Part shown: piece after piece, positions 1,952-43,000 of the stretch
How the letters are laid out: every line of letters begins with the position of its first letter
Numbering within the stretch: the stretch's first letter is position 1
Assembly: GCF_963676685.1 (NCBI RefSeq)
Contig: NC_092347.1
Location: 91,760,001 to 91,824,000 of the forward strand
DNA from: Mytilus edulis
Lineage: Eukaryota
Direction of reading: 5' to 3'
DNA length: 64,000 nt
Notes under the pieces: model-generated
What the model was told of the DNA's origin: nothing
The model's database searches: none
Seen by the model: the letters and a program-made list of their open reading frames with translations, nothing else
Made by a program: the position numbers and the translations under genes

Positions 1952-4900
1952 CACCATAAGTTATCAAATCCATACCCAACGAATTGAAATAAAAATCTCC
2001 GACCTAAGTTATAACATAGAGAAATAAATACCCGATTTTGCAAAAGTTTTATAGGGAACAAAAAAGCAATGACAAGAATAATTCTAAACTAAGGCTGTTT
2101 GAGCATTATGGGGTTGGGACGATCGTCGGCAAGACTTATTAAGTTTGTCGATGTGCATTTACAATCGGATATAAATAGGGAGCATGAGTTCAACAGTAAG
2201 CACGTGGAAAATTTTATTTGCTCTGTATTATTTCTGATAACAGATGAAATATAAATTCCTCAATTGCTTTCCCTGGGAAATACAAGTTTATTTGTCACAA
2301 TAAACAAATCAGAAGTTTGAGCATAATGGAGAGATGGATAAGACATTTTCGATTTTCTGTTAAGAGGAACTGTATGTAAGAATTAGAATGTTCCTTATTT
2401 ATTTAAAAAGAGCAAAAAATCTTTGAAAAAATATGATGTTATAGTTTAGATATAATTTTTGTCGGTATGCAAATAACTTAGATATCCAAGTAAATATAAA
2501 AGAAATAATAGATATTATTCAGATATTAGATCCAAACAAAGCATCTGGTCCTGATGTGATCAGTCATAAGATGCTAAAGCTGTGTCCAGAAAAGGTAGCA
2601 GTTCCGCTCCATATTATATTTAATAAATCCTCAAGAGAGGGGATATACCCAACTAGCTGGAAGATAGCTAATCTGATACCCATTTTCAAAAAGGGAGATT
2701 CATCTTTGCCATCAAATTATAGACCGATATCCTTAATTAGTTGTGTAGGAAAAGTTATGGAAAGAGTTGTGTTCAAGCACTTATACAATCATTTAAAAGC
2801 TAATAAATTAATTTATGAGTATCAATCAGGATTTCTCCCTAAAAATTCAACTGTTCATCAACTCTTAGAAATATATAATTGCATATAAAACTCCTTTGAA
2901 AAAAAGATATAAACTGTTTTGTATTCTGTGACTTCTCTAAAGCTTTCGACAAAGTTTGGCATAGGGGTCTTATATGTAAAATGAAAGCTTATGGTGTTGA
3001 CGGAAACGTATTGAATTGGTTTCAGGATTATCTACACGACAGACAACAGAGAGTAGTATTAAATAACTCGTCTTCTTCCTTCTGCAATGTCTCAGCTGGT
3101 GTTCCCCAGGGATCGCTTCTGGGCCCTCTTCTCTTTGTCTTATACATTAATGATATTGCTGATAAGCTTACTTCACTGTGTCGGCTATTTGCTGACGACA
3201 CATCATTCAATTATTCTGGTAACGACGGAGAACAGATTGAATCTGTTATCGATCGCGACTTGAAAGAGCTGGATGTTTGGTCTTCTAAATGGCTTATGTC
3301 ATTTAACCCAGATAAAACCGAAATTATGATTTTTTTTTCAAATATTGAGACTCCAGACCTTAGCTTTTCCTTAAATGGTAAATATATCTTTAAGTACATT
3401 TCATTAGCACCTGGGAGTTATTTTCAGTAGTGACACAAAATGGAACAATCATATTGAAAGTATAATTCTAAGTGTAAAGAAACACTTAAATGTTTTACGT
3501 AAACTTAAGTACCGATTATCTCGAAATAATTTAGAAAAACTATACTTAGTTTTTATTCCACCCATTTTTGAATATGCCACGGAAGTGTGGGATAATTGTG
3601 GAATAGGCTACTCACATAAATTAGAAAATTTGCAATTAGAGGCCGCAAGAATAGTAACAGGTCTACCAATATTTACAAAAACTGAAACTTTATATTCTGA
3701 GGTTGGTTGGGAATCTAGCTCTTTTTGAAAGAAGAAGGAGAAGAAAATTACAAATGTTTTATAACATGATCCAAAAGCATGCACCAGACTATCTATGTAA
3801 TCTTGTACCTCCTTGTGTACAAAGTACAACCAACTACCCGTTTCGAAATGGTCATGATATTATTGTTCCATTTTGTAGACTTTCCCTTACTACTGAATCG
3901 TTTTTTCCCTCAACTATACGTGAATGGAATAAACTTGATCCAAAAATTCGCAGTGTCGACTCTATTTCTAAATTTAAGAAAGAATTAAAAAACGATAGTC
4001 TATTATGTAAAATTGAAACGTTTTATTTGTACATCCCAAGGAAATTAAATATTATCTTAACGCAATTGCGATGTTCCGCTTCATTCTTAAACAATAACCT
4101 ATTTAGAGCTTATATTATAGATGATCCTTCTTGCCATTGTGGGTCCGATATTGAGGATGTCTACCATTACTTCTTAGTTTGTCCAAAATACAAAATTCAG
4201 ACACTTTGAAATGTCACTGAAATCCATTTTATTTCTTCTGAAATATAAGAAAAGTTAAAAACAAAAAACAAAAAACAGGAGAAGACGATGATATGACAAT
4301 TATTTAAAACAATACTATTCCTGAAAAAACATCAACAAAGATATGTATTCTCTGATACGTATATGGAACTATATGAACATTAATATTTTGTAACCATAGC
4401 TTTGTTTAATGACAGGTGTTCCTCCTCCTTGTCCACGAGATTTCTTAGGCCATAGTACATCATGTTATCATGCTGCTCATATCTTGGCAACATGGCCCGA
4501 GGCTGCGGTAAGTTTTTTTGTCAAGCCCTTTCTACCCCTTTTGCTTTTTATAAAAGAGTATAATATAAACAACCTTGTATAAAAGGTCACATTAGGGAGT
4601 AGATAAACTGGCCTTATCTAAAAGTTAAGCGTTGAATTGAGACCCAGAATGCCATAGACATTATTTCAGCAGGACAAGACCTGACAAGACAGGTTTAAGC
4701 TTAACACGTGTGAATTTTATAGCAGGTTTGACAAATTAAAATACACCAAAAAAGTCCTATTCACGTAGCAGACATTAATCTATGAAAATCCAGATAATGT
4801 GTTGCTTCGTTCCTGTTGCGTTAACATATATCTGAGCTCAGATCTGCACTTGGTGCCTTTTTGTTGTTGGGATGTACAAGTACTCGGCCACGTCCACTCT

Positions 4901-6837
4901 GTTTTAGTTAGATGTATTTTGTTTTTTTACCCATCTGATGAGTTAAGTCTTTTTCAACTGATTTTCATATGTTTGTTCTTATGTTGTACAGTTACACCAT
5001 TGTCCCAGGTTAGGTGAGGGTTGGGATCCGCTAACATGTTTACCCCGCTACTTTCTGTATGTATGTGCCTGACACATGTCAGGAGCCTGTAACTTAGTGG
5101 TTGTCGTTTGTTGCTGTGTTACATATTTTTTTTTTCGTTCATTGTTTTTGTTCGAATGGTTTTACGTTTGTGATTTCGAGGTCTTTTATACCTAACTATT
5201 CGGTATTGGATTTGCTCATTGTTGGACATTTTTTAATGTACATGTAATACAATTTTTCACATTTAACACTATTTAAGGCCTACTGTGAATCATTTGGTGC
5301 TGAGCTTGCAACTATCGAAGACGCACAAGAGCAAGCTTACATAGAACAAATGCTGAATGGCCTTCCTCGTAAGTCATATCAATAGTTATGTCGTCCAAAA
5401 AGGATTAATATGTATATATATAAAAAGAAGATGTGTAATGATTGCCAATGAGACAACTCTTCGCAAGAAAACAAATGGCATAGAAATTAGCAACTATAGG
5501 TCACCGTACGTCCTTCAGGATTTATTTCATTTTACTAAATTTAAATTAATTGGCATCGCAAGATTTACCATTTCACTTTTCTTTAGAACAATAAGGCTTG
5601 TAAATTTGTAGATTAAAGACAAACTACGAAATAGAGAGACAAAATAAGGGATAATTATCATATTCAGAAGGTCAACGTTATATATATGCGTGTGTAACCT
5701 CCACTTTCAACTTTTTTTCTTTTTTTTAAGTTGGAAAAATGGACGTGATAAATCATATTTTAGCATTGAAATCGGTCGTAATATCTTATTTGGCTTGTTA
5801 ACTGATTAAAGGCATAAGAAGAAAAAAATGTTCTTGTCCTCAACTAATCTTATAACCCATACACTCTCTTTCATTTACGAGTATCTTTAACCAGGTGCAA
5901 ACAGATTATCAAACACAATTCATTACGTTTATAAGGATTTCTTGTACATTACATATTAACTCATTTCTTTTAAGATGATAAAAACCAAGCAGCGTTCTGG
6001 CTAGGAGGTCATGATATATTAACAGAAGGGGAATGGCAATGGGTTATATCAATGAACAGAATCATTTACACCAATTGGGGTGACGGACAGCCGGACAACT
6101 CACATACATCCGAACATTGTCTGGAATTGTCCGGACAAAGATCATTCAAGTGGAACGATGATGGCTGTGAGGATCATCATTACTTCATATGTGAAACTGG
6201 GTTAGTATATTAGTTTTGGACATTGCATAGTCCAGAGGCGAATGTAGGTGGATCATCCCTCCTTTCCCATTGTTACATATATGGTTAATACATTCACTTT
6301 TTACTTTTACAAACCCAGTTCTAACGTTATCAAGCTGGGGATCCCCTATTTCTGATTTTTTTATGCGCACCTGCCAAAAAATGATTATAATTTTGTTGAT
6401 CAAATAACAATATAAACATACATAGTTATATTATACACCGGTACCTGTTACTGTAAGTATATGATATAGTTTTAGCAATAATATTGTATAGTGTACTTTT
6501 ACATGTTTTAGTTAATTTACTTTTGAAATGCATCTTTAATATTTATAGAATATTTTCGTTTAAATTGGGAATATATCTTTAAACATAATCATTACATTTC
6601 TGCATTATGTTGCAGACCATAATACTTGTATTCATGAAATATAGTAAAAACGCAGACGCTGATGAAAAAAAAAATAATAGTAGACTTTTCACGTGATGAA
6701 AAATTCGGATTGAGGGGAACCTCCTCTGACTTTACCAAAGAAACTTTTACAATTGATTTAGTTCGTATTGAAATCCTGTTTTGTTTTGTTGTTTCAGAAT
6801 CATTAAAAACGGTGGTAGTATACTTGGAAAGAAATGA
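105..6837 (+). CDS. Secreted C-type lectin (perlucin-like), paralogue 1, about 195 aa
   Basis: Phase-consistent GT-AG exons: 105-135 (MDNLSFLICI), 903-932 (GYLIITADTS), 1580-1657 (Thr-rich), 4416-4507 (VPPPCPRDFLGHSTSCYHAAHILATWPEAA), 5278-5368 (AYCESFGAELATIEDAQEQ), 5975-6200 (FWLGGHD..EGEWQW..YTNWGDGQPDN..EHCLE..WNDDGC..FICE), 6798-6837 (IIKNGGSILGKK*). Total 588 nt. Canonical CTLD cysteines with WIGL-like, QPD and WND motifs. The N-terminal exons are less certain than the CTLD exons. Confidence 0.88.
2466..4210 (+). mobile_element. 5'-truncated, frameshifted CR1/L2-group non-LTR retrotransposon (RT plus C-terminal Cys/His region) in an intron of lectin 1
   Basis: ORFs 2556-2888 (NYRPISL), 2981-3430 (GVPQGSLLGP, LFADD) and 3703-4209 (CHCGSDIEDVYHYFLVCPKY). 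DFSKAFD lies between the first two ORFs. Several frameshifts. Confidence 0.93.
4826..5225 (+). repeat. Interspersed repeat family B (PLE 3'-end-like), with a decayed twister core at about 5005-5090
   Basis: Homologous to 7565-8100 (-), 20700-21212 (+) and 46775-49140 (+, interrupted). Contains GAGGG-TTGGGATCC-AACATGTT-CCCCGC..CCTG..CAGGAGCCTG. Confidence 0.75.
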
Positions 6838-7564
6838 AGATACATGGATTACACATTTGTTATTATTGTTTATATGAAAAGTATATTGGGATGATGAACA
6901 TGTTAAAACCCAATAAATAGCGTCCACATACTCTAGGTCCACACAATTTAACTAGATAAAATGCCGGTTCCAAGTCAGAAATATGACAGTTGTTATCCAT
7001 TCGTTTGATGTGTTTTGGCTTTTGATTTTGCCATTTGATTACGGACTTCCTTTTTGAATTTTCCTCGGAGTTCAGTATTTTTGTGATATTACTTTTTGGA
7101 TACTAATTCAATTATTAAGACTCTTCAATAGACTTAACACATTAAACAGGTCGGTTAGCATACACGGCAGCGTCATAACTGTCACGACGTTAAAGAATAC
7201 TGTCAGCACAAACTTTCTGGCAGGAAAATAATAATATAAGATTCAGTGATTTCGTAGCTGTTCATCAGACCGAATAGCCATTAATGTTATACATAAATTC
7301 AACAGTAGTTTAACGGTGTTCAAAGGTCTTAAATCGACTGAGAGAAAACTAATCCGGGTTACAAACTAAAACCGTGGGAACCACTTCAACTATAAGAGGG
7401 AAAAAATGGAAATAGGAACACTGAAGTGCAACAAAATAAAAACTGAAAACATATATATAAACGATCTATTTTATAACAACTGCCATATTCCTGTTAAAAG
7501 ACACAGTTCCTATCAATGTATGTGCTCATTACATATAACAATGGAAATGATTATGTTACTTGCT

Positions 7565-9628: not shown

Positions 9629-12600
9629 ATGGTTAACAGCATGATGGCTTTCTTTTATTTCTTCTTACATATTGGTAAGAATTTATTTAATTTTTGGGTT
9701 ATTTCTTTTTAAATTCAGTGATAAACACGATAAAAAAGGATTGAATTTTTGTGAGAATATATTGATTTATATATTGTTGGGTACCAGTTTTATTATAAAT
9801 AATTTTGTGTTGAAAAATTGGTATATAATATCGTATAAAATAAGTCGAACAGAAATAGTTAAAGTTATCGTGTAAGATACATTGAATTTCAATAATAGCG
9901 CTATTAATTAGCGCTGAGAGAAAACAAAAAGATAAAACAAAAAGCAGAAAACAAATTTTTTTTTTTTTCAAATCCATCAAGATAATGCGTTCGACTTGTA
10001 GCATTACGGTATTGTGTTTACGACCGGTTTTGTTAGATTTTTATTACGATATAGTTGATACCTTGTTCATTTAACTCTATACAGATGTATAAAAAGTAAA
10101 ATCACAAAAATACTGAACTCCGAGGAAATTCGAAACGGAAAGTCTCTAATCTAATGGCAAAATCAAAAGCTAAAACACATCAAACGAATGGGAAACAACT
10201 GTCATTTTCCTGACTTGGTACAGGCATTTTGTTATGTAGAATATGGTGGAGTCAACCTGGTTTTATAGCTAGCTTAACCTCTCTTGTATGGCAGTCGCAT
10301 CAAACTCCATTATATTGACAACGATACGTATAAAAAAACAAACAGACATAATAGGTAAATATGTCAACTATACAGCAGTCAACATTGTGTTATATGAAAC
10401 ATTGTGTTATAATCGTAATCACTAAAAAAACAAACAAAACGATATGTAACAAAGAAGCATAAAATGGCATATAGACTAAGCATATCACCAAAAATTAAAG
10501 ACAAGAATACACACATTTGTCATCGCATATATGATTTCTGGCAACTGTACCAGGGGATGTCTTGCATTAGCATTGAGTTATGAGCTATTCCTCCATGTTG
10601 AAGGCTATGTGGTTGTAACCTTGTGAGATAAGTAATTGCAAAGTTCTGTTTCTTTGCTTTCTATTTTGTCATGTGGTTTTATAGGATATTTTGTCCGAGC
10701 ATGATATGTGAGTAAATTACGTCATTACGTTTACTGTCAAGGATGCATTTATTAATTTGAGAATATCAGTTATTGTTAATGAAAAATATGGCATCATTAC
10801 TAAAAATATCAGTTACATTAGGCAATGCACCAAATCAATTACAAAATGACAACAAATCATATCTATATTCCAGGGAATATCATGGTGGTCATATCAAGAT
10901 GTAAGTGTCAATATATAAATACTGGTATTATTTACTAGGACTACAAAATGGGTGTTTTATCATAAAATGAAACATTTTATTCTTTGAAACTGCAATAGTG
11001 CAACTATATTTTTTTCTGAATAAAATGTAGTAGATTATCTAAATCTATATATATTATAATCTGTTTGCATATAAATTAATTAAAGAAAGATAAATAAAAT
11101 GTAAAGAAAATAAAAAAGTGTGAGGGTATCCAGATATTTTCAGATTGCATTAATTGATAAAAAAAAATCGTGTGTAAACTAGGATTTTTCGCAATTGTTT
11201 TTTTTTTAACGCCGTTTATATCACTAAAATTTAGAATTTTAGAAATACTAAGGCTTCTCTACCTCAGGAATAGATTACCTGAGCTGTATTTGGCAAAGCT
11301 TTTAGGAATTCTGGTCCTCAATGCTCTTCAACTTCGTACTTTATTTGGCCTTTTAAACATTTTTTGATTCGAGCGTCCCTGATGAGTCTTTTGTAGACGA
11401 AAAGCGCGTTGGTGTAAATTTAAATGTTTAATCCTGGTATCTATGATGAGTTTATTCACACCCATAATAAGTTTGCGGATGACGGTCAAATTGAAAAAAG
11501 TAAACAGAGAGAATTAGAAATGTTTGAAGGCAACATTTTCTAATCTTGCATGGAACAATCTCGCATGTTTCTCGATAATCAACAATCGCCCTGATAAATG
11601 CATGCAGTAATATTTGAATGTTCTCTATAGAAGCAGTATTACTAACTTTACTTGTTGTTTATTTTAGCGACTTTGCCAAACATTGAAACGCCTATCCCAC
11701 CAAGTACAAGTCAGACATTGCCTAACATGGAGACACCATTTCCGCCTAGTACGGTACAATATTTACCAAACAAAGAAACGCCGTTTCCACCATCAACAGT
11801 TCAGCCACTGGGAGTCGTGACCAATGCCACTGATTCACCTACAACTACATGTAATAATAGTTGCTTTATTTATTAATGTTTTATTAACAGTATTTGATAA
11901 TAACATGTAATTTTGTAAATTACATATTTCGTTGTGTAGTCATTTGAATTTTTCAAACATTCTTCAATAAAATTCATTTATTATTGGCCAATACCGTGCC
12001 AAGTCAAACAAAATTCTAGATTACATCTATTGTTTTTACACTTTTTGTCAATTAAATCCCTTCTGTGTAATGATCATTTTGGTGTTCCTTGCCTCGCAGT
12101 GTGCATGGTAGATTTTCCAAAAGAGATTTGTAGAATTACCTATGATACAGCTACGACAAATCGAACATCCGTGGTCATTTGGGACACTTATTCTTGAGAC
12201 AAAAAGACTATGAACAAAAAATTTAAAAAAAATGCGCATTTTCAAAACTTACAGTCATTTTTTAAATAAATTTTGAAAATCTATGCACAATAGCTTCATA
12301 ATATGAAGCAATGTCTGAACGTTGATTGTAATATACTAAAATGACTATAAATACCTTTGAATTATGGATAAAAGTATAACGCACTATATCTTCTACATTA
12401 TCTTAACACGAAATTAAGATTGTGACGATTAATCTCAAAGTAGAGATTTTACAAAACCCAAGCGTCCACGTCATCATGAACTGTAGTAGCAAACATTACA
12501 GAAATTAAATAAACATTCTGCGATACAGTGCATTAGATGATCATATATAACAAGCTGATGTTCACATGACCCATTTTATTTTAAGATTTAATTATAAATA

Positions 12601-15409
12601 TTAAAGTTGCATGTCCGAATTCTATTTTAATGTACTAATTAGCTTATACAAATGATACATTTTATGATGTTTCATCATTAGATGTTCCTCCGCCATGTCC
12701 AAAGGATTTCCTTGGCCATAGTAACTCGTGCTATCATGCTGCACGTGTCAAAGCAACATGGCCAGAATCAGCGGTAAGATTATAAACTTGCCATGTATCT
12801 GGCAATGAAAACTAATTTAATATGTGCTGATGCTATAGACATTAAATGCTGAAAAAATGAAAACAACACGTGAAATAATTTCATACGTTCAAAGCAATGT
12901 TCTGGATTTCCCTTTATCAGTAACACTCAAATATATGAAAACCAAGTTAACATGCAGGTACTAATATACATGAAAACAGAATACACATTTTAAATATTAC
13001 AATTTCAGGTAGAGAGAAAAACTAAAGGCTGAAACGATCTGAAACAGTAGGAATCGATTAAGATTTAGAACGTATTATTACCATGAACGTCCACATGTAG
13101 TGAGCGTTCCTGATATGCCGGCATCGCCCGGAATATATTTCCAATAGATAACATTAAAATAAACATATACAGTATAATATATTTTCTTTATGCACTTTTA
13201 TTGTAGGCATATTGTGATTCTTTTGGTGCAACTCTGGCAGTGATTGAAGATATACAAGAACAGTTATATTTAGCACAAATGCTGAAGACTTTACCAAGTA
13301 AGAGAGATTTTTTAAGCAATAAGTGTATATGTATACATATTGTATCCACGCAATGTTGACGGAAAACATAAAGAGTTCTATGTAAAATCCTTTCGTGTCC
13401 AATTATTACAAAAAGTAACATGGGGGCACACGAACTTTTTTTACACAGCTTGAACAACTTTAAAATATCCAATTGAATTACCGACAAACTTTCTCTTAAC
13501 ACTTTTATACACTTGATGTTCTAGTTAACTCAAAAAATTACATTTCTGATAATGCCGGAAATAATGCATTTTGGTTGGGTGGACATGATATACTGGTGGA
13601 GGGAGAATGGCAATGGGCGATAACTCTTGAAAAAGTACAGTACATGAACTGGGATTCCGGTCAACCTAATAACAATGACAATAATGAACATTGCATGGCA
13701 ATGACTGGCAGCCGAGGATATAAATGGGAGGACAAAAAATGTGAGGATCACAATTACTTCATATGTGAAACAGAGTAAGTATGTTCATAAAGTACAATTA
13801 AAAACCAATTCTTCAGAGAACAATTGAAGGTCTTTCCACCTCGATAATAAGAATGAGATTTAGAAAACGATGTTAGAAAATGTCACTCCTTGTTGATGTA
13901 ATTTGGTTCTTCAAAGTGATATAAAAACATAAAATTAATAGGTATATGCAGAAGACTTAAATGTTTTATTATGAACAATAATTTTTAGCAAAGGTCAAAA
14001 TCTGGAATGTCAAATTGACCTTTGAACTTGATCTAAATTTCAAGGTCATAGCTCAGTTATCTCAAATTAAAAGACCCCAGGTCAATCATTTGTATGGTTG
14101 TGGAGAAATACTGATTTCAAATACATAAGGGGAGAAAACTCCTATAAGGGTTAATCAAAGTACTTCGACTGAAATAGGTTGAAGTTGCACCTTTTTGTAA
14201 ACAGTAATTTGGCAAACAAATCATATCAGTAACTGTAACAGTTTCTTTTGAATAACGATAACAAGCAAAATTCAAAATTTATAACATAACCTTGACCTTC
14301 GACCTTGATCTCAATTTCAAGGTCACAGGTCAGTGAACTCAAAACGGAAGACCGGAGGTCAATCACTTGTATGGTTGTGGAGAAATACTGATTTGAAATA
14401 CATAAGGGTTGAAAACTCATATAAGAGTTAACCAAAACACTTTGACTGAAATAGGTTGAAGTTGCGCCTTATTGTAAACAGTTATTTGGCAAACACATCA
14501 TATCATTTACTGTCACAGTTTCTGTGGAATAACGATAACAAGCAAAATTCAAAATTTAGAACATAACCTTGACCTCAATTTCCTTCAAATGGACCAAGGA
14601 CTTCATATGAAAAGACTGTAGGCCTCTACGACTTATAACGTATGAATTTATCCAACAAATCGCCTATCTTAAATTTTCAAAGGGAAATAATTGCCATAAG
14701 ATGTCTTCCGATCACTCAAGTCAAAATAAGCCAAATCATTCTCAAGAATAGACGAACAATTTGGTGAAAACAGTTTTCTAAAATCTTTAACGATAACCAG
14801 AAAAAGGGACGCAGGGAGAGACTCCTATAAGATTAAGTGTTCGGTCACACAGGGTGAGTTTTGAAACCCCCATTACTGTACAACATCATTGGCCAAAAAA
14901 TCCATTCGATATGTTGTAAGACAAAAAAGAATCTCAGACGGCAGAAGAAAAAAAAAAGAAAAAAAATAATCAGAAGAAAAACAAAAGGTCTTTCCACGAA
15001 AAGTGGAAAGACCTAATTAGTATTCCATAGTTGCCTACAAAACATGATTTAGAAACAAACGAACAGATAATAATTTTAGACATATATATGTTTGTACAAG
15101 AATCAAAGTTCCAATTGTAACTTCCAGAATTAACACTAGATATATAAAAAAGTGCAAATTCAATGGTTTAAATTCATACCATACTCAAAACTCCCTACTT
15201 ATCACAAAAAAACATTTTTAGAGCGGAAATAACTGTTTCAAAACAGTATTCAAATTAAAAACATTTTTAGCTAGTTATAGTTACAGAATCTTTACAAATG
15301 ATCACACTTTTATGAAGAGATTTCAAATTATTACTTTTATACGTTTTCTCCATTTTTTTTCAGCCACAAAACCACTATGAATACAAACATAATATTTGGG
15401 AGGAAATAA
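9629..15409 (+). CDS. Secreted C-type lectin with a Pro/Thr-rich repeat stalk, paralogue 2, about 244 aa
   Basis: Exons 9629-9674 (MVNSMMAFFYFFLHI), 10874-10900, 11668-11850 (three 15-aa repeats of the type TLPNxETPFPPSTVQ), 12682-12773, 13207-13297, 13525-13774 (FWLGGHD..QPNNND..EHC..WEDKKC..FICE), 15364-15409 (HKTTMNTNIIFGRK*). Total 735 nt. The 92-nt and 91-nt exon sizes and phases match paralogue 1. Confidence 0.85.
10093..10520 (-). repeat. Interspersed repeat family C with a mutated twister-like core (10198-10295)
   Basis: Close match to 17818-18125. Fragments of the same family at 6957-7097, 17460-17670, 25838-25940 and 40257-40456. Confidence 0.8.
11225..11456 (+). repeat. Retrozyme/pLTR-like repeat with a decayed minimal type I hammerhead (11373-11415)
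   Basis: CTGATGA-GTCT(TTTGT)AGAC-GAAA-AGCGCG-TT core with short flanking stem I. Related decayed copies at 22336-22620, 23048-23400, 27744-27820 and 44985-45190 (+), and at 17055-17220, 24175-24500, 30140-30350 and 38500-39300 (-). Confidence 0.7.
13819..15016 (+). mobile_element. Non-autonomous Helentron-type (HINE/DINE-like) element in the last intron of lectin 2
   Basis: AGGTCTTTCCAC near the left end (13828) recurs in the terminal hairpin AGGTCTTTCCACGAAAAGTGGAAAGACCT (14986-15014). Internal duplication of about 290 bp (14016-14580). Confidence 0.7.
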
Positions 15410-16495: not shown

Positions 16496-17920
16496 ATTCT
16501 TGCCAATCTAATGTATCGTTCCCTCGAAGATGTAATGCCAATCGACTGGCAGTGGTGGCTGTAAATGCTACGTTTACTGCAATTTGAAAAAAATGATCAT
16601 ATCTTAAATACCACTTTCTAAACGTCAAAAATATTTCGGTCGGTAATATGATTTTGTAGTTTTAAACCAGTATCGTTGTAACTCTGATCAGACATTACTG
16701 TAATAAATTGTTATTTTGATGGAGAGTTGTCTCATTGGCACTTACACCACATCTTCCTATATCTATAGTTCCAACGTAGGAATGGCCACAGTAGAAATAT
16801 AACTGCAAACAATAACACTCAACCATTCCTAAATGATTCCGTTCAGTCGTCATTTGCAGGTGAAAAAAGTAACAGCTGAGAGAGATTATGAAGAAAGAAA
16901 TGAAAAATACACCAGATTGGACCAATGAACACATATAATTCGACAAGTACCGTGCTTCAGTTATATGACTTATAAATACAAAGGCATGAACTGTTTAACA
17001 ATATAATCACAATCACATGACAGTCGATCAAAATGATACTTGATTGATTTCTGTGTTCGAAGCGCTTTTCCGAATTATTTTTTTTTACCAGAAACGGTCA
17101 AAGCCTGACATTTGAAAGACATTAGTTTATAAATAAATAAAAGGGCCTAAAAAGAATAGCTAAATTAGGCTAAGTTCAAATTGAGGATGATAAACATACA
17201 GTTTCATAGTAATTTCTACATTTACCAAAGAGGAATTTTAGACACATATTATACGTTCTAGATAAAGGCAACAGAAGTATACCACTGCTCTATAGTCATA
17301 AATCGATTTAGAGTAGATAAATCAGGGTTCCAAACTAAACTGAGGTTAGCATTAGCTATAAAAGGAAAACAAAGTAACAACAAGAACACTGATCTACATC
17401 AAAAACAAATGCCAATATACATAGATTCGGACTATTTAAAATTCATATCAGTACCGAAAAAAGTAAAACAACAAAAAAAATGAACTCCGAGGCAAAGTTA
17501 AACGAGAAGTCCTTAAGCATATGGCAAAATCAAAACTTAAAACACATCAACCCCCTGGATAACAACTGTCATCTTCCTGACTTGGTACAGGCATTTCCTT
17601 ATATCGAAATGATGATTTAACCTGGTTTTAAAGCTAGGTAAACATCGCACTTGTATGACAGTCGCAAAAATCATGTACTACTGAGCTAGGGATAACCAAG
17701 GAGGTCGGTATCAACCCACTGCTTAAAAATCTTTATAAATATCATGACTCCGAAGCCCTTTACTAACTCAACCCTCAGCAGGATCGCTGAAAAAAAACAA
17801 GTATATATAAGTATTGAAAAGTAAAATCACAAAAATACTGAACTTAGAGGAAAATCTAATCGGAAAAGTCCATAACCACATGGCAAAATAACAAAACACA
17901 TCAAAAACGAATGGACAAGA

Positions 17921-18019
17921 ACTGTCATATTCCTGACTTGGTACAGGCATTTTCAAAATATAGAAAATGGTGGATTAAACCTGGTTTTATAGCGCTAAAC
18001 CTCTCACTTTGATGACAGT
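17921..18019 (-). ncRNA. Twister-like ribozyme (P5-type permutation) in a family C repeat (17818-18125)
   Basis: Minus strand reads ACUGUCAU..GUGA-G-A-GGU-[UUAGCGCUAUAAAACCAGGUU]-UAA-UCC-AC-CAUUUUC..GAAAAUG-CCUG-UACCAAGU-CAGG-A..AUGACAGU. P2 is imperfect. Confidence 0.6.
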
Positions 18020-20064
18020 CTCATCAAATTCCGTTATATTTACAATGATGCGTGAACTAACAGACATAATAAATAAAATAAGTCAAAATATGGGTACAGC
18101 AGTCATCGTGTAACAATTTTAAAAGAAACAAGTGAAGACCTATATGACAAAAGAGGGGAAAAAGTAACAGCCAAATTAATTTAAGGTTAACTTTGCTTGA
18201 CGATATTACATTTTTTTCTTGATATATAAAGACAATGATGTATGTTATGAATTATGTCAGTTCCACATACTGACACTGAGTTGAGGATAACAGTGGGGAT
18301 GATAACCTTCCTGCAGCAGTATAAATCCAATGCTATAAAAATTAAAATTACAACTTCTAATGACAAGCTGTATAAGGATATATAAGAATAGACACAGGTC
18401 AAGAGCCATTTGGCCAAAAGTTATTCGCCAAATCAATCAATATCAAGTTGACCAGAGGAAGTATAAAACTAGTAGGACGCTCAAAATTTTAGGACGGGAA
18501 AAGTGTCTCATAAAACTAACTACCTAGGTGATTTTTGACGCCCTTTACTGGTTGGTAAGACATTGAACGGTCTTCAAAGTGTCCAAAGGCGTTTGGTGAG
18601 CATTTAGATATCATGTTTTCAAGTTCGAAAAAGGCGGCCATTTCGGGTTTTTTTACTGTTATTTTGATTGTTGTCTACTTCCCTCACAACGGCTGTTTTC
18701 AAGGCCAGGTATGTCAGCCATGCAGCTAGTTTCAAAAACCATGATGTTGAAGTGCTGGTTGATGAGTCTCCAACCTAGTATTAACGATGACAGGAAGCAT
18801 TATCAGGACCACAGTCGGGAGACCGTGAAATGACAGTACATTATTTAACATTTCTACTAAGGATACAGTCCCTTGGATGTCAGTCGTCATCCATAATGTG
18901 TTGTTGTATGCTGAGGCGGGTATTTACACTAAGCAAAATATATACTGTGCATCGTTGCACTGGTTTCTGTCATCGAAAGTAGTACGTCGTTGAACCATCT
19001 AATAGTAAACAAACATTGTAAATAGCGGGTAAAGAGGAGCTGACCAACCACGTCCTTTCAGCTGATAACGAACATATTTCAAGGAGTTAAGCACCATTTA
19101 TTATTAGTCATTTTTTTTTCACTTAAAATTAATAAATGAAAATTTCAGAGTGCTCGAACACCCGCATTTTGAAACCCTTAATGATCTATACAGCCATTTT
19201 TTCGCCAATTTCCGATCCTTTGGCAATCAAAATCCTGTTTAGTATTTATCATAAAGCAAACACATTAACGACAAAAACTTAACGACAAAATGAACATAGA
19301 CATATCTAAAAAGGCAGCAGCATACAGTCATCAACAATTTCAAAAAGACGGATGTCCTTTCAATATGTTCAGGATCAAATTCCTCCTAAGTATAGACATG
19401 GAATTTCAAAATTCAGGATCTTCGCTTTTTTTAAAACATTAAATGCATCTAAATTTTATTCATATAGTTCCTGCCATGCATGTCGATACATTTATTTTTG
19501 GCATTGCACAAGTCATGTCTTCTCTGACTGTTCATGACGTTAAATAATAAATTCCTTGGATATGTTTTAGTTGATTTTAGTCTCTGATGCATGATTTTTT
19601 ATTATTAATTGTTTTTGGCTTTTAACTAGTTGTCAGTAACTGCGAGTACTCTCAAATCGTATTTTCTTGTTAATTCTATCTGTTGATACTGTTTATAATG
19701 TTTTTTTATTATTTTATATTAATATGGATTTTGTCTATATACCAGCTTTGATTATTTGGAATATCTACTAATTTTCATTTCTTCGTACTACATTTGTATG
19801 AACTTCAAGATTATTCCCCTTAAATCTGTACAGGGTAGTTTTAGCTAGCTCTAATTGTATAGTTTTGTTGTTGATATTCACCCCAATTTGTATCTAGTGT
19901 TAAATTATGTATTTATATGACAGAACCTTCTTGGTATTCCTAATTATTGGAAGAATTTTATACACATATGTAGTATACCTAAAACGACAAAGTTTTTTTT
20001 TCATTTACCTTTATATATTATTAAAACCGGTTTTTTTCAAAAGTGATTATTTTCGAAGGGTTAA

Positions 20065-20699: not shown

Positions 20700-21212
20700 T
20701 TTGTTTACTTATTGGCCTTGAATGTTTGTCCCGAATATTTTATTAACTGTGCATTTGCATTCAGCTATCGCAGATCTAATTTATTCGTTCATAGTGTGTT
20801 AATTTACGTTTTTTGATTGAGTTAAGCCTTTCAATAGATATTTTATCGTGTGTTTTCTATGTTGTGATGTTATGCCATTGTTTCAGAAAAGGGAGAAGGT
20901 TTAGTACCATTAAAACGTTTAATCCCGCTGCAAATGTTTGCACCTGTCCTCAGTCAGGAATCTGATGTACAGTAGTTGTCGTTTGTTTATGTAATTTATA
21001 AGTGTTTCTCGTTTTTTATATAGATTAGACCGTTGGTTTTCCCGTTTTAATGGTTTTACACTAGTAATTTTGGGGCCCTTTATAGCTTTTTGTTCGGTGT
21101 GAGCCAAGGCTCCGTTTTGAAGGCCGTACATTGACCTATAATGGTTTACTTTTATAAATTGTTATTTGGATGGAGAGTTGTCTCATTGGCACTCATACCA
21201 CATCTCCATATA
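20700..21212 (+). repeat. Family B-related repeat carrying a near-intact twister core and the shared 3' tail
   Basis: Ends in GAGAGTTGTCTCATTGGCACTCATACCACATCT. The same tail occurs at 700-838, 5414-5517, 16697-16765 and 60620-60718. Confidence 0.75.
20883..20965 (+). ncRNA. Twister ribozyme (P5-type), one loop-4 substitution
   Basis: UCAGA..GGGA-G-A-AGG-[UUUAGUACCAUUAAAACGUU]-UAA-UCCC-GC-UGCAAAUGUUUGCA-CCUG-UCCUCAGU-CAGG-A-AUCUGA. Confidence 0.7.
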
Positions 21213-24900: not shown

Positions 24901-27136
24901 ACTTTCATATTTTTTTCAATTCTTCGGTATGCTTGAATATTTCCTCCAAGAATCTAATGCAATCCTAGAAGCTACTGATAAAAAATTGTTAAAAAAAAAA
25001 GACACAATAACCAAGTCTTGCCGCATGCTTTCGTACTTAACTTTTATTATGTTGCGGTTCCTAGTGAATGTCATAACAATGTTCTAAATGACAAAGTTGT
25101 GCAGTTGTAAAATTTTGCGAATATTCAATCAACAATAGAAGGCAAAGAAAAGAATAATGAACATTCTACTGAGCGTTAAAATGCAATCTTTGCAAAAGAT
25201 GTATGAAAAATAGATTTTGAATACACAGAACATGGGACTTTAACAAGAAACGAAACAAGTCGATATGACATATCTATCTTGATTGATATTTCCCATTTTT
25301 TATATTAATTTTTATCCGTTTTTCCAACATATGTATCAAACATTATCTTATCAAAAGTAAATCTATTAAAAGATTGCAATATGCTTTCGTACTTTTCATT
25401 GATTGGAGACCATGCATGCATATGATGGTCTAAAGGTGATCATTTGATTAAAAAAAGTTTGTTTTCTTGGGATTTTGTTTTTTTGTTTTTTGTTTTGTAA
25501 TTATTTTAGGGAGAGGGATTCTTTTGATATTCTTGCAGTTTCCAATTCTTAACGTTATTCACATATATATATCTTTTTATTAAATAAATCGTAAAGTTTG
25601 AGCTACAGAAATGAAATAAACGTTTTGCAACTTTAATAATTAAAAATACAAAGGAAATGAATCTCTAACAAATAACTTGATATCTTATTAGGTTCTAATG
25701 ATTCTGCTAGAATCAAACGTCTAATTAATGTTATATGATTGGAATGGGGTTTGTGGAACAGAAAAGAACATATCATAAAGTATCTATGTTAATGAAATAT
25801 AATGGTTGCAAATAATCCAAGGGTAGAATGACCAGAACATTCGTTTGAAATGTGTGAGCTTTTGATTTGTGCCATTTGATTAGGAACTTTCCTTTTTGAA
25901 TTTTCCTCGGACTTCAGTATTTTTGTGATTTTATCTTTTTTTTCAAGGCAAATGTAGATTTCAGGTGAAAGGATAAAGGAACGGTTGTTTTTCGGATAAA
26001 AGACACAAAGCGATAAGAAAATGTTATACTAGGACCTAAAAATGGATAGATACAGGAAATCCATCATAAAGATTTCAATGTGCTATGGACAAAAAATTAT
26101 AAATCTTTGAACTGCAATTATAATATATTGGTGGTTATGACTTTAAGATCATATGTTCTCTCATTATAGATCAAATGAAGGATGTTGTACTTTAGTGAAG
26201 TGTTTCTTAATATAGAAACAGACATCAAAGGTGTTAAGTTCTTTATTTAATTGGGGTTTAACACGTGAATTCGCATTTGGTCTGTCATAGATTTAGGTAA
26301 GATTCTTTTTAATATTTTGTTTTTATCCTTTATTAATTTTGGGAGAATGAATGTATTTCGAAATCAATTACAAGGATGAGCATTTTTCAGTAACAATGCC
26401 TTTGATTTTGCTACTTGATTCCGATTCGAATTTTTCTTGTGGTTCGGTAAGTTTTTTGTTTTACTTTTTTTGCAGTCTGGAGAATTCAAAGAAATTACAA
26501 AAATAATTTGATAGAGGGTACACAATTTCAAGGGATAATTAAAAATCACAATTATGAGAAAGACAGATACCACAATTGCCGTACAAAAAGACGAGCAGAT
26601 ATACATCAGTCCATTACTCTATTCCGAAAAAAAAAATTACCAGTTCAGAAATGAGTTGAAATAGTGCTCTACAAGCCTGGTTTATTGTAAACATTCGTCG
26701 TTTTCTATTTCAAATCTGTATTGTCACTGAAAATGATTCAAAGAATAGCAGATTGGTACATGTAAACTGCCATTAAGGCAGTTATACAGCTATCTCGCAA
26801 AATATTGGAGTATGATAAAGCGAGATAATCAGTACAACTTGTATTCCGCAAACATTTGACTCTGTTAGTTGTACATGTATTTGGTTTTTTTATATATATA
26901 AATAAATAACACCTTTTAAATACAAATTTGTGTTTTAGGAAAAACCAATTATCCATAAAAAAAACTCTGATTAAAAAAACTGGGTTAACTGTGTAACTGA
27001 CATGATGCTTGAGTTTTTCGTTGTTTTTATACAATATATATTAGTATGTTTTGGAGTCTGCTTTTCGCTAATCAGTATGTTTTCTTAGAATAACCAAATG
27101 TACTCTTTTTATCACTAAAATGTTTCTTTTACTGTA

Positions 27137-27660: not shown

Positions 27661-28708
27661 TTTTTTTTTACAGGATATCATTTTTATGCTATGCATTTAT
27701 TGCCAGAAAGATTGTATATAAACTGTCAATATTATTTAGTCTAGAGCGTCATTAATGAGTTTTGTGCAGACGTAACGCGCGTCTAGCGAATTAAATCATA
27801 ATCCTGGTACCCTTGATGACTATTAGTACGTACCATTCGAAACATTACTACGGTCTACGCATTTCATGCAAATGAAAATAAAACAGCAGCAGTAATTTCT
27901 TTATCCAATTCCAATGGAATGCATGAAGGGTTTAAAATCTTATGATTAATAAAGTACTGAAATATTTGAAATGCAGTTAAGGCTGTACGAAGACAGGAAA
28001 ATGGCCATTGTTATATTATAGTTCGTTTCTGTGTGTTACATTTTAGTGTTTAGTTTCTGTTGTGTCGTAGTTCTCCTCTCATATTTGATGTGTTTTCCGC
28101 AGTTTTAGTTTGTACCCCGGATTTGTTTTTCTTCTCAATCGATTTATGAATTTGGAACAGCGGTATACTACTGTTGCCTTTATTTTTCAGAACGAGCAAT
28201 AAATTAAGTCACTCACAAACCGTATTTAAACAAAATAAAATGTGACACAATTACCAATGCAACAGCTATCTATAAAAAACAAAGGTCGAAGATGTGGACA
28301 ATCACATATCATATGTTTTTGTGATATCAAAGATGAAAATGTGTCGGTTTTGTTTTTATCATAAATATTTTGAGTGCAATAGTACACGAAACACAAGTGT
28401 AAGAATCATTTTTTTCATATTACCGGACATTTGTACTTGTTTGTTCATTTTAAGAAGTGCTTGTTTTTTACTACCTAAATCGAACTGTAAGTAGATCTTG
28501 ATTGATACTTTGGTTGATGACAACATTATTTGTAGAACTTTATGGAATGGTAATTATCCTCGATAAACACTTAAGAGTTGAAATATTGGTATAATTATTT
28601 CATAAACATTCTTAGTCATCTGTACGTGGCCAGCAACCCACGTTTGCCATGTAAAGTTGTAACTTTGATGATTAATTCACATCCTCTTTTTCAGATCAAG
28701 ACTGAAAT

Positions 28709-29815
28709 ATGGTAGATACAACAGAGAACAAGTCTTATTTCTTTGATGAAGAGGTTGGCTGGGGAAATAGGTCATACTTTACATTTTTCTCTGAATTCAA
28801 TCGACCATGGAAAGGACTATCTTATTTGGAATCTGTTATATATATCGTGTTATTTCTAATATCAATGTTTGTTAATATTCTCATATTTTACCAAATAATA
28901 AATATTAAAAGCACGCGAACAGTGACAAACTATTTTATGTGCAACTTGGCTTTAGCGGACATCTTCTTTACTCTTACAAGTCCATTAATAGCAATACAAC
29001 GCATTACTGAAACCTGGGTACTTGGTGGATTTATTTGTCACATGATGGTTTTCAATTTATTTGTCTCCGGTTCCGTCATTATATGGACCATGACAATGAT
29101 AAGTATTGACCGCTATATATGCATAAACAGACCATCATCAAAGAAAATTACACCTAGAATGGCAATCATTTTCATAATAATTATTTGGATCGGTGGATTT
29201 TCGGTATCATCGCCTATTGCAATGTACTTTGTCGTTCGACAATTTCCTTTCGGAACACAAACTGTAAAAATCTGTACACTAATTTGGCCCGTATCTAAGA
29301 TCCGGATATCTGTCGTTTTCACCGTTTTTCTATGTGCATTAGGATTTTTAATTCCGTTGGCTATTCTCGCAGTGAACTATTTTCTCATATTGAAAAGATT
29401 CTGTAAATCCAGACGAGCTATAGCCAGCATTAATGGAAATACGTTAACAAAGAACAAGCGACATAGAGAAGCCCGAGATCTTCGAGTGATTCAAACACTG
29501 GTTCTAGTGGTAGTTTTATTCCTGTTAATGTGGTCGCCGATATTTATTGTATTTGTTTTAATTCAATTGGACGGTATGGACGATAAAATGAAAATGTCAT
29601 CTCAAATGTTCATAGCAACTTTAGCCATAGCAGTTTGCAATGGTTGTCTTAATCCATTTGTATATGGAATTCGTAACTATCGGATTAAACGATCTGTTTT
29701 AAGATGTCTATTGCATCGAAAGCGACAAAGAAGAATAAAACAAGACAACGAACCAAATCATAACCAGTCTGTATATGCAATGAGTTTTACTCAAAACTCA
29801 AGTTCTGTTTACTAG
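28709..29815 (+). CDS. Class A (rhodopsin-like) GPCR, most similar to free fatty acid receptor 4 (GPR120)-like receptors
   Basis: 368-aa ORF with seven hydrophobic segments, NLALAD, TM3 Cys, DRY, WSP and NPFVY. N-terminal YFTFFSEF resembles the FPFFSD segment of FFAR4. An in-frame TGA just upstream fixes the start codon. Ligand class is inferred. Confidence 0.92.
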   Translation: MVDTTENKSYFFDEEVGWGNRSYFTFFSEFNRPWKGLSYLESVIYIVLFLISMFVNILIFYQIINIKSTRTVTNYFMCNLALADIFFTLTSPLIAIQRITETWVLGGFICHMMVFNLFVSGSVIIWTMTMISIDRYICINRPSSKKITPRMAIIFIIIIWIGGFSVSSPIAMYFVVRQFPFGTQTVKICTLIWPVSKIRISVVFTVFLCALGFLIPLAILAVNYFLILKRFCKSRRAIASINGNTLTKNKRHREARDLRVIQTLVLVVVLFLLMWSPIFIVFVLIQLDGMDDKMKMSSQMFIATLAIAVCNGCLNPFVYGIRNYRIKRSVLRCLLHRKRQRRIKQDNEPNHNQSVYAMSFTQNSSSVY

Positions 29816-40000: not shown

Positions 40001-43000
40001 TAGATATTCCGTAATCTCCACATCAATTATCCTCACAAAATAAAGAAAACATATAGTTTTTACTAAATGTCTATAGTCTGATGAAAATATTACTTATCTT
40101 AGCTCCTATTATCGGTTATCTTATAGCGTGTCGTTTACAGTCACTATTCCTTAATGCACATTTGATGACTGTTGTACCCAAATATTTTGCCATTTATATT
40201 TATTATGTCTAGATCTGTTTACTTTGTTCACCTATTGTGGTCAGTCTAGTGAAATTTAATGTGAATGTGATGCAAATGAGAGGTTTAGCAAGGTATAAAA
40301 CCATGTTCAATCCACCATTTGTTTTACATCAGGAAATGTATGTACAACGTCCAGAATGTGACAATTGTTTTTTATTCATTTGGTGTGTTTGGACATTTGA
40401 TAAGCGACTTTCTGTTTTGATTGTTCCTTGAAGTTCGGTATTTTTGTTATTTTACTTACAATGACGACTTGCTTGAAAATCTATCATAAGGAGATGGAAT
40501 TTTTTTTATTTTTATTGTACTTCCAATCACTTCAATCTCCTCAAGTTTAAAACAGATAGATTGTGTTGTTCCAGATTTCTTGAAAATTTGTTTATCAAAT
40601 CAAAGATTGCAACTAACTGCCTTATTTTTTGTTGTTGAAAAAAGCAAAATAAAGATTCATATGTGACCACATCCCATTTATAATTCATCAAACTCAAACT
40701 TGATCGGTGTATTGTGGTGATCTAGGTACTGAGCTACTAGGCTGGTGATAACTTCAAAGACTAACATTTCTTCATGAGATATTATTATTTTTGCATGGTT
40801 TCTTGCGGATTTGCTCTTACCCCAGTTGTATGAACAACATTTTACTGCATCAGATGCACATTGCAATAGTTGATCTGTTTCAGTGATGCTCAAGGTCAAA
40901 ATGTTTGGAAGTTATTGGTTATACTATGTTGAAAAATTATACAAGACTATTGTACTTTGGTATAAAAATAAAATTGTAGATGGCTAAATTCAAAGTCAAA
41001 AGTCAAGATTTTATATGCAGAACATTCACTTATAAAAAGCCAAATTGTGGTTTCTAAGATTAATATTCGTGAACATAGTTGCTTAAATTCGTATTCTTAG
41101 CAGTCAACACTATGAACAATACTGAAACAGCAGAGATGAATGAGACATTTCAAGATCATGCTGTAGTAAATCCTGTCAATATATATAATAATCATTTGAA
41201 TTCCCCGGCATGTATAGTCAATAGACAAAGACTATAGAAGTTTACCTTTGTTCAATAGTCATAAATCGATAAGACAGAAACAAATCCTGATAACAAACCA
41301 AACTGATGGGGAACATCAACTATAAGAGCAAACTAAACGGAACAATAGAACATTGAACTGCTACAATAACAAACGTCAACATACACTGAAACCAACTACA
41401 TATGTGATAACAGTTGCCATATTCCATTCATTAAATATATTCATATTCATATAAACACTTTTACTGCAACAAATGCTTATTTCAACAAACTGGGCTTAAA
41501 GTTTTACGAGATTGTTAACAAAAAAATAATTTAGTAATGATTATAATGTCAATTTCATGAACAAGAAAGTTATAAACTAATGTGTCATCAAATCATTCAA
41601 ATTAAATTAACCTGGATCAGTCTGATTCATACGTAATTTTCCTTATTTCATTGTCCAGTTTGTTTATCATTTCCTTGTAAAAATGTTGATTGGCATGCTA
41701 AATTCTTATGATCACTAATACACTAAGACCTGTCTGATCAAATACTAACTATACCTGAAAACTGTGAATTGTAAATGCAAATGTAACAGAGACAACAACT
41801 CTACCAAAGAGCAGAAAACAGATTAAGGCCACCGATGGGTCTTTAATACAACAAGAAACCCTGCACCCGGAAGGTGGCTTCAGCTTGCCCCTGAACACAA
41901 ATTTCTACATTTTCAATGAATAATGGGCGTAACAAAAAACTCCCAAACATAAAAATGAAATAATATATTTTGAACCTGTGTGAACTGAACCTCTATTTAA
42001 AGGGAATGAACTCTTTGTTTGTGAAGGAAACAGCTTAGACAAATTTTACTATGTTAATATATGGCATCATGATTGTAGTGATAGGTAAACTGGTGTATGG
42101 CTCAAATGATGGATGTAGTAAAACTGTAGATCTACAACTGTCGACACTTTAAATGCACTGCACATGAAAATTGTAATCTTGGGCTGATCAGATATGTGTA
42201 TGACCTACACGGAAAAAATAAATGAAAAAGATAAAGGGGAAGTCTTAAGCTTCAGAAATGAGTATATTGGGACATTGACAAAAGATATTGCTCCATAGAC
42301 ATACTTTTCATGCCTTAGTATTGAAACTCTTATAAAATAAAAGTTGAAATATAATACTCAATAGGCATACAGGAAACTAATAGTAAGCATGCATGTACAT
42401 AAACAAAAGAAATGAAAAATACAGATTTTATTTCTTAAAAGATAACAATGTAAACATTATAACAAAACTACATTTGGTCTCATTCTATAAAAGTGATTTC
42501 TAATGCTGGTATCTGATATGATTGTATTATTTGTTTAAACCACCACATGACCCCTTACATGTTGGGATGCTAAATTCCTCATTATATCTAAGAAACAAAA
42601 TGTTGAAACATGTAGATGCTTCTAATTTGATCTCACCTTGTGATAATTAATCCCAGATTTAAAATGCAGTAATAAATGAATTTTGATACTTATTTTCATT
42701 AAAAGTTATAAAACTACAAATTAAATCTAAATTTTCAAAATGACAAATTCTTTGCATCCGTTTCACAAACTGAATATAAGATTCAAAGAGCATTTTATAA
42801 GTATATATGATACAGAAATATTAATTATCCAATTTTTAAATTTTATTTTCAAATATTTAGAGAAAGATTGATAAAGGTACCTCTAAGACAAGGTGGAACC
42901 AATAAAGCATATATGGATATTAAGATGAAAACATTCCTTAATGAGGGTTAAAGGTCATAAATATATCAAATCAAGCAATACTCACATAGCTTAGTGCAAA

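Follow-up and report, generated by a model that had tools for sequence, protein, structure and literature searches.

The abundant short repeat termed family C in the mussel Mytilus edulis, one copy of which lies on the minus strand of the analysed window (the whole stretch of 64,000 nucleotides, positions 91,760,001 to 91,824,000 of contig NC_092347.1), is by sequence identity the 5'-truncated 3' end, or pseudo-LTR, of the Penelope-like element Naiad_Mgal, and it carries a variant motif that likely works like a twister ribozyme. The element can be named, both of its pseudo-LTRs hold the motif, its 3' end is fixed, the twister geometry is kept with compensatory changes, and two palindromes are conserved beside the predicted cleavage site. 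The explanation that is favoured here, with somewhat better than even confidence, is that the pseudo-LTR of Naiad_Mgal harbours a type-P5 twister predicted to cleave itself at U|A; such cleavage would probably require two copies to pair through their palindromes and would free a unit-length RNA.

Read 5' to 3' on the minus strand, the blocks of the motif follow one another as P5, the 3' strand of P2, GA, the T1 strand, a 22-nt linker, UAA, the 5' strand of P2, the T2 strand, P3, P4 with its loop L4, and P5, which is a type-P5 permutation with P3; these blocks were assigned by eye against the twister domain table of PMC8501958 and are collected in Table 1. The NAA at the cleavage site, the GA before T1 and the U and AA of L4 are all present, as are the P4 hairpin and the closing P5, and the minimum free energy (MFE) fold contains P3, P4 and P5 together (z -3.14; 1 of 200 shuffles as good). 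A preliminary description, made from the letters of the window, had named a large pseudoknot of ACC/GGU, a 2-bp pseudoknot that is fully Watson-Crick (AC/GU), a P3 of CAUUUUC/GAAAAUG, P5 strands of ACUGUCAU and AUGACAGU, and a P2 one base short (UCC against GUGA, three against four); all of these were confirmed base by base on the minus strand, and the whole or partial copies placed at 6957, 10198, 17563 and 40268 were all located at or around those positions. What that reading missed are the two palindromes in place of P1. The ACC/GGU state occurs in 22 of 22 copies of subfamilies C2/C3; in subfamily C1, to which the window copy belongs, GGU is found in 7 of 55 copies and GGG, an A.G mismatch at the outer T1 pair, in 42 of 55. 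These counts refer to 77 parsed family C copies (C1 55, C2/C3 22), with 37 further core matches unparsed as C.

Table 1. Parts of the twister-like motif and family C copies in the window (positions are those of the window)
Feature	Position	Strand	Basis or remark
Whole type-P5 twister-like fold with P3	17921..18019	-	base-by-base reading, MFE fold, Rfam
P5 5' strand ACUGUCAU	18019-18012	-	sequence reading and MFE fold
P2 3' strand GUGA, one pyrimidine bulged	18007-18004	-	geometry shared with Naiad_Bpla and Naiad_Mphi
GA, predicted general-base G and A of the A.A pair	18003-18002	-	alignment by eye, PMC8501958
GGU, 3' strand of long pseudoknot T1	18001-17999	-	alignment by eye; pair counts
Palindrome 1 UAGCGCUA, at the place of the P1 3' strand	17990..17997	-	shuffle test
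Palindrome 2 AAACC-A-GGUUU, replaces the P1 5' strand and runs up to the predicted cut	17977..17987	-	shuffle test
UAA, predicted scissile bond U17977/A17976 (U|A)	17975..17977	-	homology, PMC8501958
P2 5' strand UCC	17974-17972	-	sequence reading
AC strand of short pseudoknot T2	17971-17970	-	sequence reading, pair counts
P3 hairpin, 7 bp: CAUUUUC 17969-17963 / GAAAAUG 17954-17948	17948..17969	-	sequence and MFE fold
P4: CCUG 17947-17944 / CAGG 17935-17932	17932..17947	-	MFE fold
Loop L4 UACCAAGU, supplying ACC for T1 and GU for T2	17943-17936	-	MFE fold, Rfam, pair counts
P5 3' strand AUGACAGU	17928-17921	-	sequence reading and MFE fold
Rest of pseudo-LTR up to the fixed 3' end; abuts the body start in full-length elements	17818..17920	-	
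Window copy: solo 5'-truncated Naiad_Mgal 3' end, subfamily C1, no ORF	17818..18131	-	88% to L050
Older family C copy, core partly decayed	17460..17666	-	
Older family C copy	10093..10471	-	
Family C copy, P4, P5 3' strand and tail only	6958..7095	+	starts 22 nt past the predicted cut; 5' half absent
Decayed family C copy, core decayed	40166..40457	+	
Tail-only family C copy	25838-25938	+	
Tail-only family C copy	22699-22624	-	

A scan of the whole window with Rfam returned no twister at E<=1, and a genome search with RF02684 gave 0 matches among 79 scored candidates. On a 141-nt stretch, twister-P1 ranked top of 4,227 families at 21 bits (E 0.017), and the motif of family A at 48581-48647 reached 23.1 bits (E 0.0033) on Rfam Twister-P5, both scores lying far under the gathering cut-off (21 vs 67.2 for family C and 23.1 vs 37.6 for family A). 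A loose twister descriptor, which served only to list family variants, matched 54 times vs 27-52 times in five shuffles of AT-rich DNA and was thus no better than chance, so a single copy alone proves little; the case for a twister fold is built on covariation and homology rather than on the match of one copy. Over ten in-register pairs in 12 copies of families A-F, 97.5% of cells pair, as against 25-45% in slid-partner controls, although the 12 rows are related and their kinship inflates the scores. T1 is 97% paired, and two of its three pairs are changed on both sides by swaps between families (G-C/A-U and U-A/G-C); T2 consists of G-U or A-U plus C-G in 12 of 12 copies (100% paired), with one-sided change only. 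The number of doubly changed pairs, two, is not above shuffles, since 313 of 500 reach that count.

The short P2 is inherited, since the 3-bp stem with its bulge is kept in 76 of 77 young family C copies, among which no 4-nt TCAC variant was found; on these sequences it is no product of decay, and published Naiads from two further mussel genera have it too. A four-bp P2 is present in families A, B, D and E and absent in family C. Besides the short P2, family C departs from the consensus by A for G13, A for C25 and U for C31, to which C1 adds its A.G mismatch. In the twister Osa-1-4, every single change at G13 lowered RA to <0.2, and Watson-Crick swaps in T1 and at C14-G30 kept activity (PMC5113685). 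In high-throughput tests of natural twisters, imperfections of P2 were tolerated and the pseudoknots were sensitive; in the long pseudoknot, A.G was one of the changes that did less harm, which bears on the outer T1 pair of most C1 copies (PMC11662667). Because it lacks P1 and a 4-bp P2 and scores under the Rfam cut-off, the motif is classed as a variant that likely works like a twister, with cleavage predicted, and not as a validated member of the class.

The host of the motif is identified by the protein start and the 3' end of the family C element, both of which match by eye the published Naiad_Mgal consensus of Mytilus galloprovincialis (supplement of PMC8557442). Thirty family C loci that were fetched all stop at one common 3' position but begin at various points on the 5' side, the longest reaching the C-terminus of a Penelope-type reverse transcriptase (RT) about 830 nt upstream; conversely, the core was found in 29 of 39 other loci picked by their RT, within the approximately 1.5 kb fetched downstream. 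One locus is complete (L050, G000:C5, minus strand), its 194-bp pseudo-LTRs being 99.5% identical and flanking an open frame of 1,053 codons, and the motif sits in both pseudo-LTRs of full-length intact elements. The protein of this locus has an N-terminal GIY-YIG domain (aa 179-269; Pfam E 2.8e-7) and a C-terminal RT (RVT_1 801-904, E 0.021, with YIDD), and its further motifs, counted from the first Met, are CDC at 443 (CxC), GPKF at 478 (GxKF) and DKA at 570. Section 6 of PMC8557442 gives a GIY-YIG N-terminus, CxC, DKA and a C-terminal RT as diagnostic of Naiads; the element agrees in domain order, in CxC, DKA and GxKF, in its pseudo-LTRs or partial tandems, in 5' truncation and a fixed 3' end, and in identity with a published family. 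The proposal of the preliminary description that such repeats are twister-bearing ends of Penelope-like elements (PLE) is upheld by these RT-picked loci, by the full-length elements and by the match to the 3' end of Naiad_Mgal, and full-length members do adjoin a PLE RT.

Twenty further long-frame loci yielded seven insertions (one fetched twice) with a 5' pseudo-LTR of 111 to >644 nt, across which the body start at the pseudo-LTR/body junction is invariant; the fixed 3' end lies 161 nt past the predicted cut and coincides with that junction. Two full-length open-frame copies (L139/L140, G000:C5:75736200-75747700) stand tail to tail in inverted orientation, and their 5' pseudo-LTRs are identical, 111 nt long and too short for the ribozyme. 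The window copy covers 157 nt on the 5' side of the predicted cut and 161 nt on its 3' side and is proposed to be a passive by-product of the element's replication process.

The 22-nt linker that stands where P1 is expected folds on its own at 0 to -1.4 kcal/mol in 12 of 12 copies, so it forms no intramolecular P1 hairpin; it holds two successive palindromes at the exact places of both P1 strands. The two-palindrome score of the window copy is reached by 0.15% of 2,000 shuffles, and the pair exceeds shuffles (p<=0.05) in 8 of 12 single copies, the other 4 having no significant pair. Homodimer energies of the palindromes range from -6 to -19 kcal/mol. The letters vary between families with self-complementarity kept; for example, palindrome 1 of family B (n=29) reads GGAUCC in 22 copies, GGUACC in 5 and GGGCCC in 1, and is broken in 1. 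Two palindromes are also seen by eye in all five published Naiad examples. Palindrome 2 departs from perfect symmetry in C2/C3 and in part of the C1 copies. In the predicted monomer fold the T1 strand is buried, with an unpaired probability of 0.00-0.14 in the three copies tested, and in family C it is the 5' half of palindrome 2 that buries it; the twister-compatible fold lies 4.8-7.5 kcal/mol above the MFE in a folding model without pseudoknot energy. Penelope hammerheads have a palindromic stem III and are cleaved as dimers, according to a review (PMC6765202), and by analogy the palindromes that replace P1 suggest dimer-gated cleavage in family C. The chances for and against such gating of the predicted cleavage appear about evenly balanced, a point against a dimer being that pairing both palindromes at once poses a linking problem.

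That the family C motif cleaves itself under some condition is judged fairly probable. Two RNA-seq runs from one study, of a kind unsuited to cyclic-phosphate ends, contained no pile-up of molecule ends at the predicted site, nor did a circle junction appear in RNA-seq at a depth of about 2 reads over the body start. The ratio of first-mate-minus reads to the opposite class is 0.55-0.64 immediately before the site and about 1.0-1.2 in the last 70 nt, where minus equals sense only under the usual library convention; part of this step comes from one expressed host copy that begins at 5506 (71 reads). The Penelope hammerhead of the anole likewise has no read ends at its site in RNA-seq and is active with protein (PMC11167929). 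Among genomic 5' ends, 2 of 66 fall within 5 nt of the predicted cut (one of these rows is a duplicate, and three are clipped at the edge of a stretch or of the query), which rules out a genomic footprint of a cleaved linear template. Separately, 20 of the 66 ends lie at 22-62 nt past the cut, over P4 and the 3' strand of P5, where RT may stall on folded RNA or alignments of old copies may drop off.

Since copies cross the predicted cut and 5' ends do not cluster there, the template would be either an uncut tandem RNA or a religated circle; the circle is put forward tentatively, at somewhat less than even confidence. In the favoured scheme, the 5' half of palindrome 2 would pair with the T1 strand in a lone copy and hold the ribozyme off, and pairing of two copies would free the T1 strand, so that both pseudo-LTRs of one transcript could be cut together and a unit-length RNA released from a transcript that runs from pseudo-LTR to pseudo-LTR. 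Ligation of the cut ends would give a unit-length circle, by which one full-length element with its pair of pseudo-LTRs could restore the junction; RT would then start at the pseudo-LTR/body junction, copy round the circle and overrun, leaving pseudo-LTRs whose 5' length varies and many solo tails that, like the window copy, are truncated at the 5' end. In the anole element RT starts internally, and insertion in vitro proceeds without need of hammerhead cleavage (PMC11167929). The fixed 3' end at the pseudo-LTR/body junction is as expected if RT starts internally there.

Thirty-five family C matches were found in sixty evenly spaced 10-kb stretches (600 kb) and 0 in a shuffle, so that the family makes up about 1% of bases, or by extrapolation some 80,000 copies in 1.37 Gb. 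In the same 600 kb, the five families with a twister yielded 70 core matches, most of them decayed, or about 160,000 by extrapolation from this even sample. The preliminary suggestion that a large share of the short repeats may bear twisters is partly supported by these 70 core matches in five families. A Naiad-type RT could be linked to families C, A and B only: in the window the family A core comes after the end of such an RT, as family B does at 1 of 30 loci, and no RT was linked to families D, E and F. Family A occupies 47588-48893 (+) and 51141-51785 (-) and comprises a Naiad-type RT end, a SECIS-like element (48307-48371) and then a twister-like core with a 4-bp P2; its inverted copy (645 nt, 99%, 2.2 kb away) has a SECIS-like element at 51663-51727 that is above the Rfam cut-off. 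Other twister-like cores or remnants, of family B (T1 CCU/AGG), E-like and F-like, lie at 20877-20972, 5068, 46862 and 27982, all on the plus strand. Family F (L151-L160, L034) also has a 3-nt P2 5' strand (CCC) and an ACC/GGU pseudoknot, with a C.C mismatch at the first P2 pair in its subfamily F1, and no RT link was seen in 15 loci.

The window holds several further features. An open frame of 615 codons with HTH_psq and DDE_1 domains (58476-60323, +) is presumably a pogo/Tigger-like transposase, a single-exon frame of 369 aa (28706-29815, +) belongs to the rhodopsin family of GPCRs, and duplicated exons at 5270-6211 and 13199-13785 (+) resemble C-type lectin domains by eye. A LINE-type RT at 2445-4209 (+) is broken over several frames, and 35725-36158, 38766-38922 and 52535-53693 contain long inverted repeats with sub-threshold Rfam microRNA matches and tandem repeats of 261 and about 161 nt.

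The same motif is present in published Naiads of other animals, where it was identified by eye in the supplement of PMC8557442. Naiad_Bpla and Naiad_Mphi, from other mussel genera, keep the 3-bp P2 with its bulged pyrimidine and have U-A replaced by C-G in P2 and P4 as well as different P5 letters; across the three mussel genera the catalytic AA and GA and both pseudoknots are conserved. Naiad-1_Movir of a box jellyfish and Naiad_Mley of a ctenophore carry canonical P5 twisters with a 4-bp P2 near their 3' ends, with T1 letters that differ yet remain complementary. Counting Naiad_Mgal, at least 5 of the 54 Naiad consensus sequences in print thus have the motif, which goes unremarked in the available text of PMC8557442, in which the word twister has 0 occurrences. 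That work describes Naiads as without a canonical hammerhead (Craig et al. 2021); its search, as given there, was for hammerheads only, and 16 Naiad families were flagged by the authors with a hammerhead core or half core.

Several other readings compete with a twister gated by pairing. An active twister could cut as an ordinary monomer, the palindromes serving template switching, RNA pairing for the RT dimer or a signal at the DNA level: other twisters can do without P1, so that one copy might cleave on its own (PMC11662667), insertions in L1 are tolerated (PMC8501958, PMC11662667), the burial model leaves out pseudoknot energy, and palindrome 2 is not perfect in every copy. The reading is nonetheless unlikely, since folding of the monomer is predicted to bury the T1 strand in each of the three copies tested, the palindromes stand exactly where both P1 strands belong, and full-length elements and thousands of solo copies have been copied or transcribed across the site without visible ends. 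It is similarly improbable that the motif descends from a twister and is catalytically dead in family C, with the fold kept as a signal for the Naiad protein or for translation, or with decay pending. The short P2, the several departures from the consensus and the missing read ends in two RNA-seq runs fit such a loss, as does a competing register, CCAC/GUGA, that in families C and F would consume the T2 strand; this alternative P2 register is weakened by an A.C mismatch in Naiad_Bpla and Naiad_Mphi, in which the T2 register is intact, and the retention of catalytic residues and pseudoknots among the mussel genera and the turn of T2 to full Watson-Crick pairing speak against a dead ribozyme.

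The preliminary description had also offered family C as a non-autonomous twister retrozyme, with a short unit of its own arranged in tandem arrays, and the high copy number and shortness of most copies would suit that reading. Its probability is now very small, and it is rejected as largely refuted: the 3' end is fixed, the ragged 5' ends are continuous with the 3' UTR and RT of Naiad, the end is identical with that of Naiad_Mgal, and the 35 sampled matches include no head-to-tail array of short units, the nearest same-strand copies being 0.67-5 kb apart, so that what was taken for an independent non-coding unit is part of an autonomous element. A merely coincidental similarity between an AT-rich repeat and a twister would agree with a loose descriptor that does no better than shuffles and with sub-threshold Rfam scores, yet it is the least probable reading, refuted in practice by compensatory pseudoknot changes between families and by canonical twisters at the same position in the Naiads of three phyla. 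The twister gated by pairing remains preferred. A wider proposal, speculative and held with clear reserve, is that a large Naiad branch, from ctenophores to mussels, swapped a dimer-cleaving hammerhead for a dimer-gated twister, that the two pseudo-LTRs of one transcript, paired by their twin palindromes so that the buried pseudoknot strand comes free, are cut together and ligated into a circular template, which would explain the pseudo-LTRs, and that some 160,000 solo copies lie silent in host transcripts.

The element is known and the ribozyme class is known; the pairing of a Naiad with a twister was not found in print. In the non-subscription literature searched, no paper joined the two, although the bivalve twister candidates in the supplement of PMC11662667 may include a family C sequence. 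Papers relevant to both Naiads and ribozymes have no mention of a twister, no match came up for twisters in bivalve transposable elements, and one Mytilus review has unrelated mentions; for Penelope-like elements, non-LTR elements and palindromic dimers, the titles and opening lines of abstracts pointed to no such report. To Craig et al., the missing hammerhead of Naiads suggested that ribozymes may be mere parasites of Penelope-like elements (PMC8557442). That a second ribozyme class, likewise accompanied by palindromes, occupies this position speaks for selection in favour of paired self-cleavage, and the twister likely does the job of the hammerhead ribozymes in related elements. The role of pseudo-LTR ribozymes becomes directly testable with short RNAs, and family C would add a naturally occurring twister, possibly one switched by dimer formation, whose 3-bp P2 and exchanged pseudoknot pairs escape current models.

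Among known systems, the element belongs to the Naiad clade, with which it shares the permuted EN-RT order, pseudo-LTRs, 5' truncation and very high copy number (PMC8557442). Its motif shares with the type-P5 twister (RF02684, in a clan with RF03160; permutations in PMC10085705) the block order, NAA, GA, the UNNNAAGY loop, P2, P4, both pseudoknots and the opening at P5; it differs in a 3-bp P2 with a bulged pyrimidine, T1 of ACC/GGU, T2 of AC/GU, P3 alongside P5, two palindromes instead of an intramolecular P1, and a score under the Rfam cut-off. Perere-3, an RTE LINE of Schistosoma mansoni, is likewise a retrotransposon that uses a twister, with a P1 that is weak or derived from the target; however, its twister is of type P1 and lies at the 5' end, where the cut defines the element end beside a target-site duplication (PMC8501958), whereas that of family C is of type P5, lies inside the pseudo-LTR, and has element ends that do not map to the cut. 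The non-LTR retrozymes of Mytilus are also abundant short ribozyme-bearing repeats linked to Penelope-like elements, but they are tandem hammerhead units without an ORF, unlike family C, the truncated end of an autonomous element (PMC7761336; bioRxiv 10.64898/2026.07.22.740005). A further parallel is offered by the minimal hammerheads of canonical Penelope-like elements, which have in common with family C a pseudo-LTR position upstream of the RT start site, palindromes, and no RNA-seq read ends at the site, and which belong to another ribozyme class whose cleavage as dimers is established and for family C is predicted (PMC6765202, PMC11167929).
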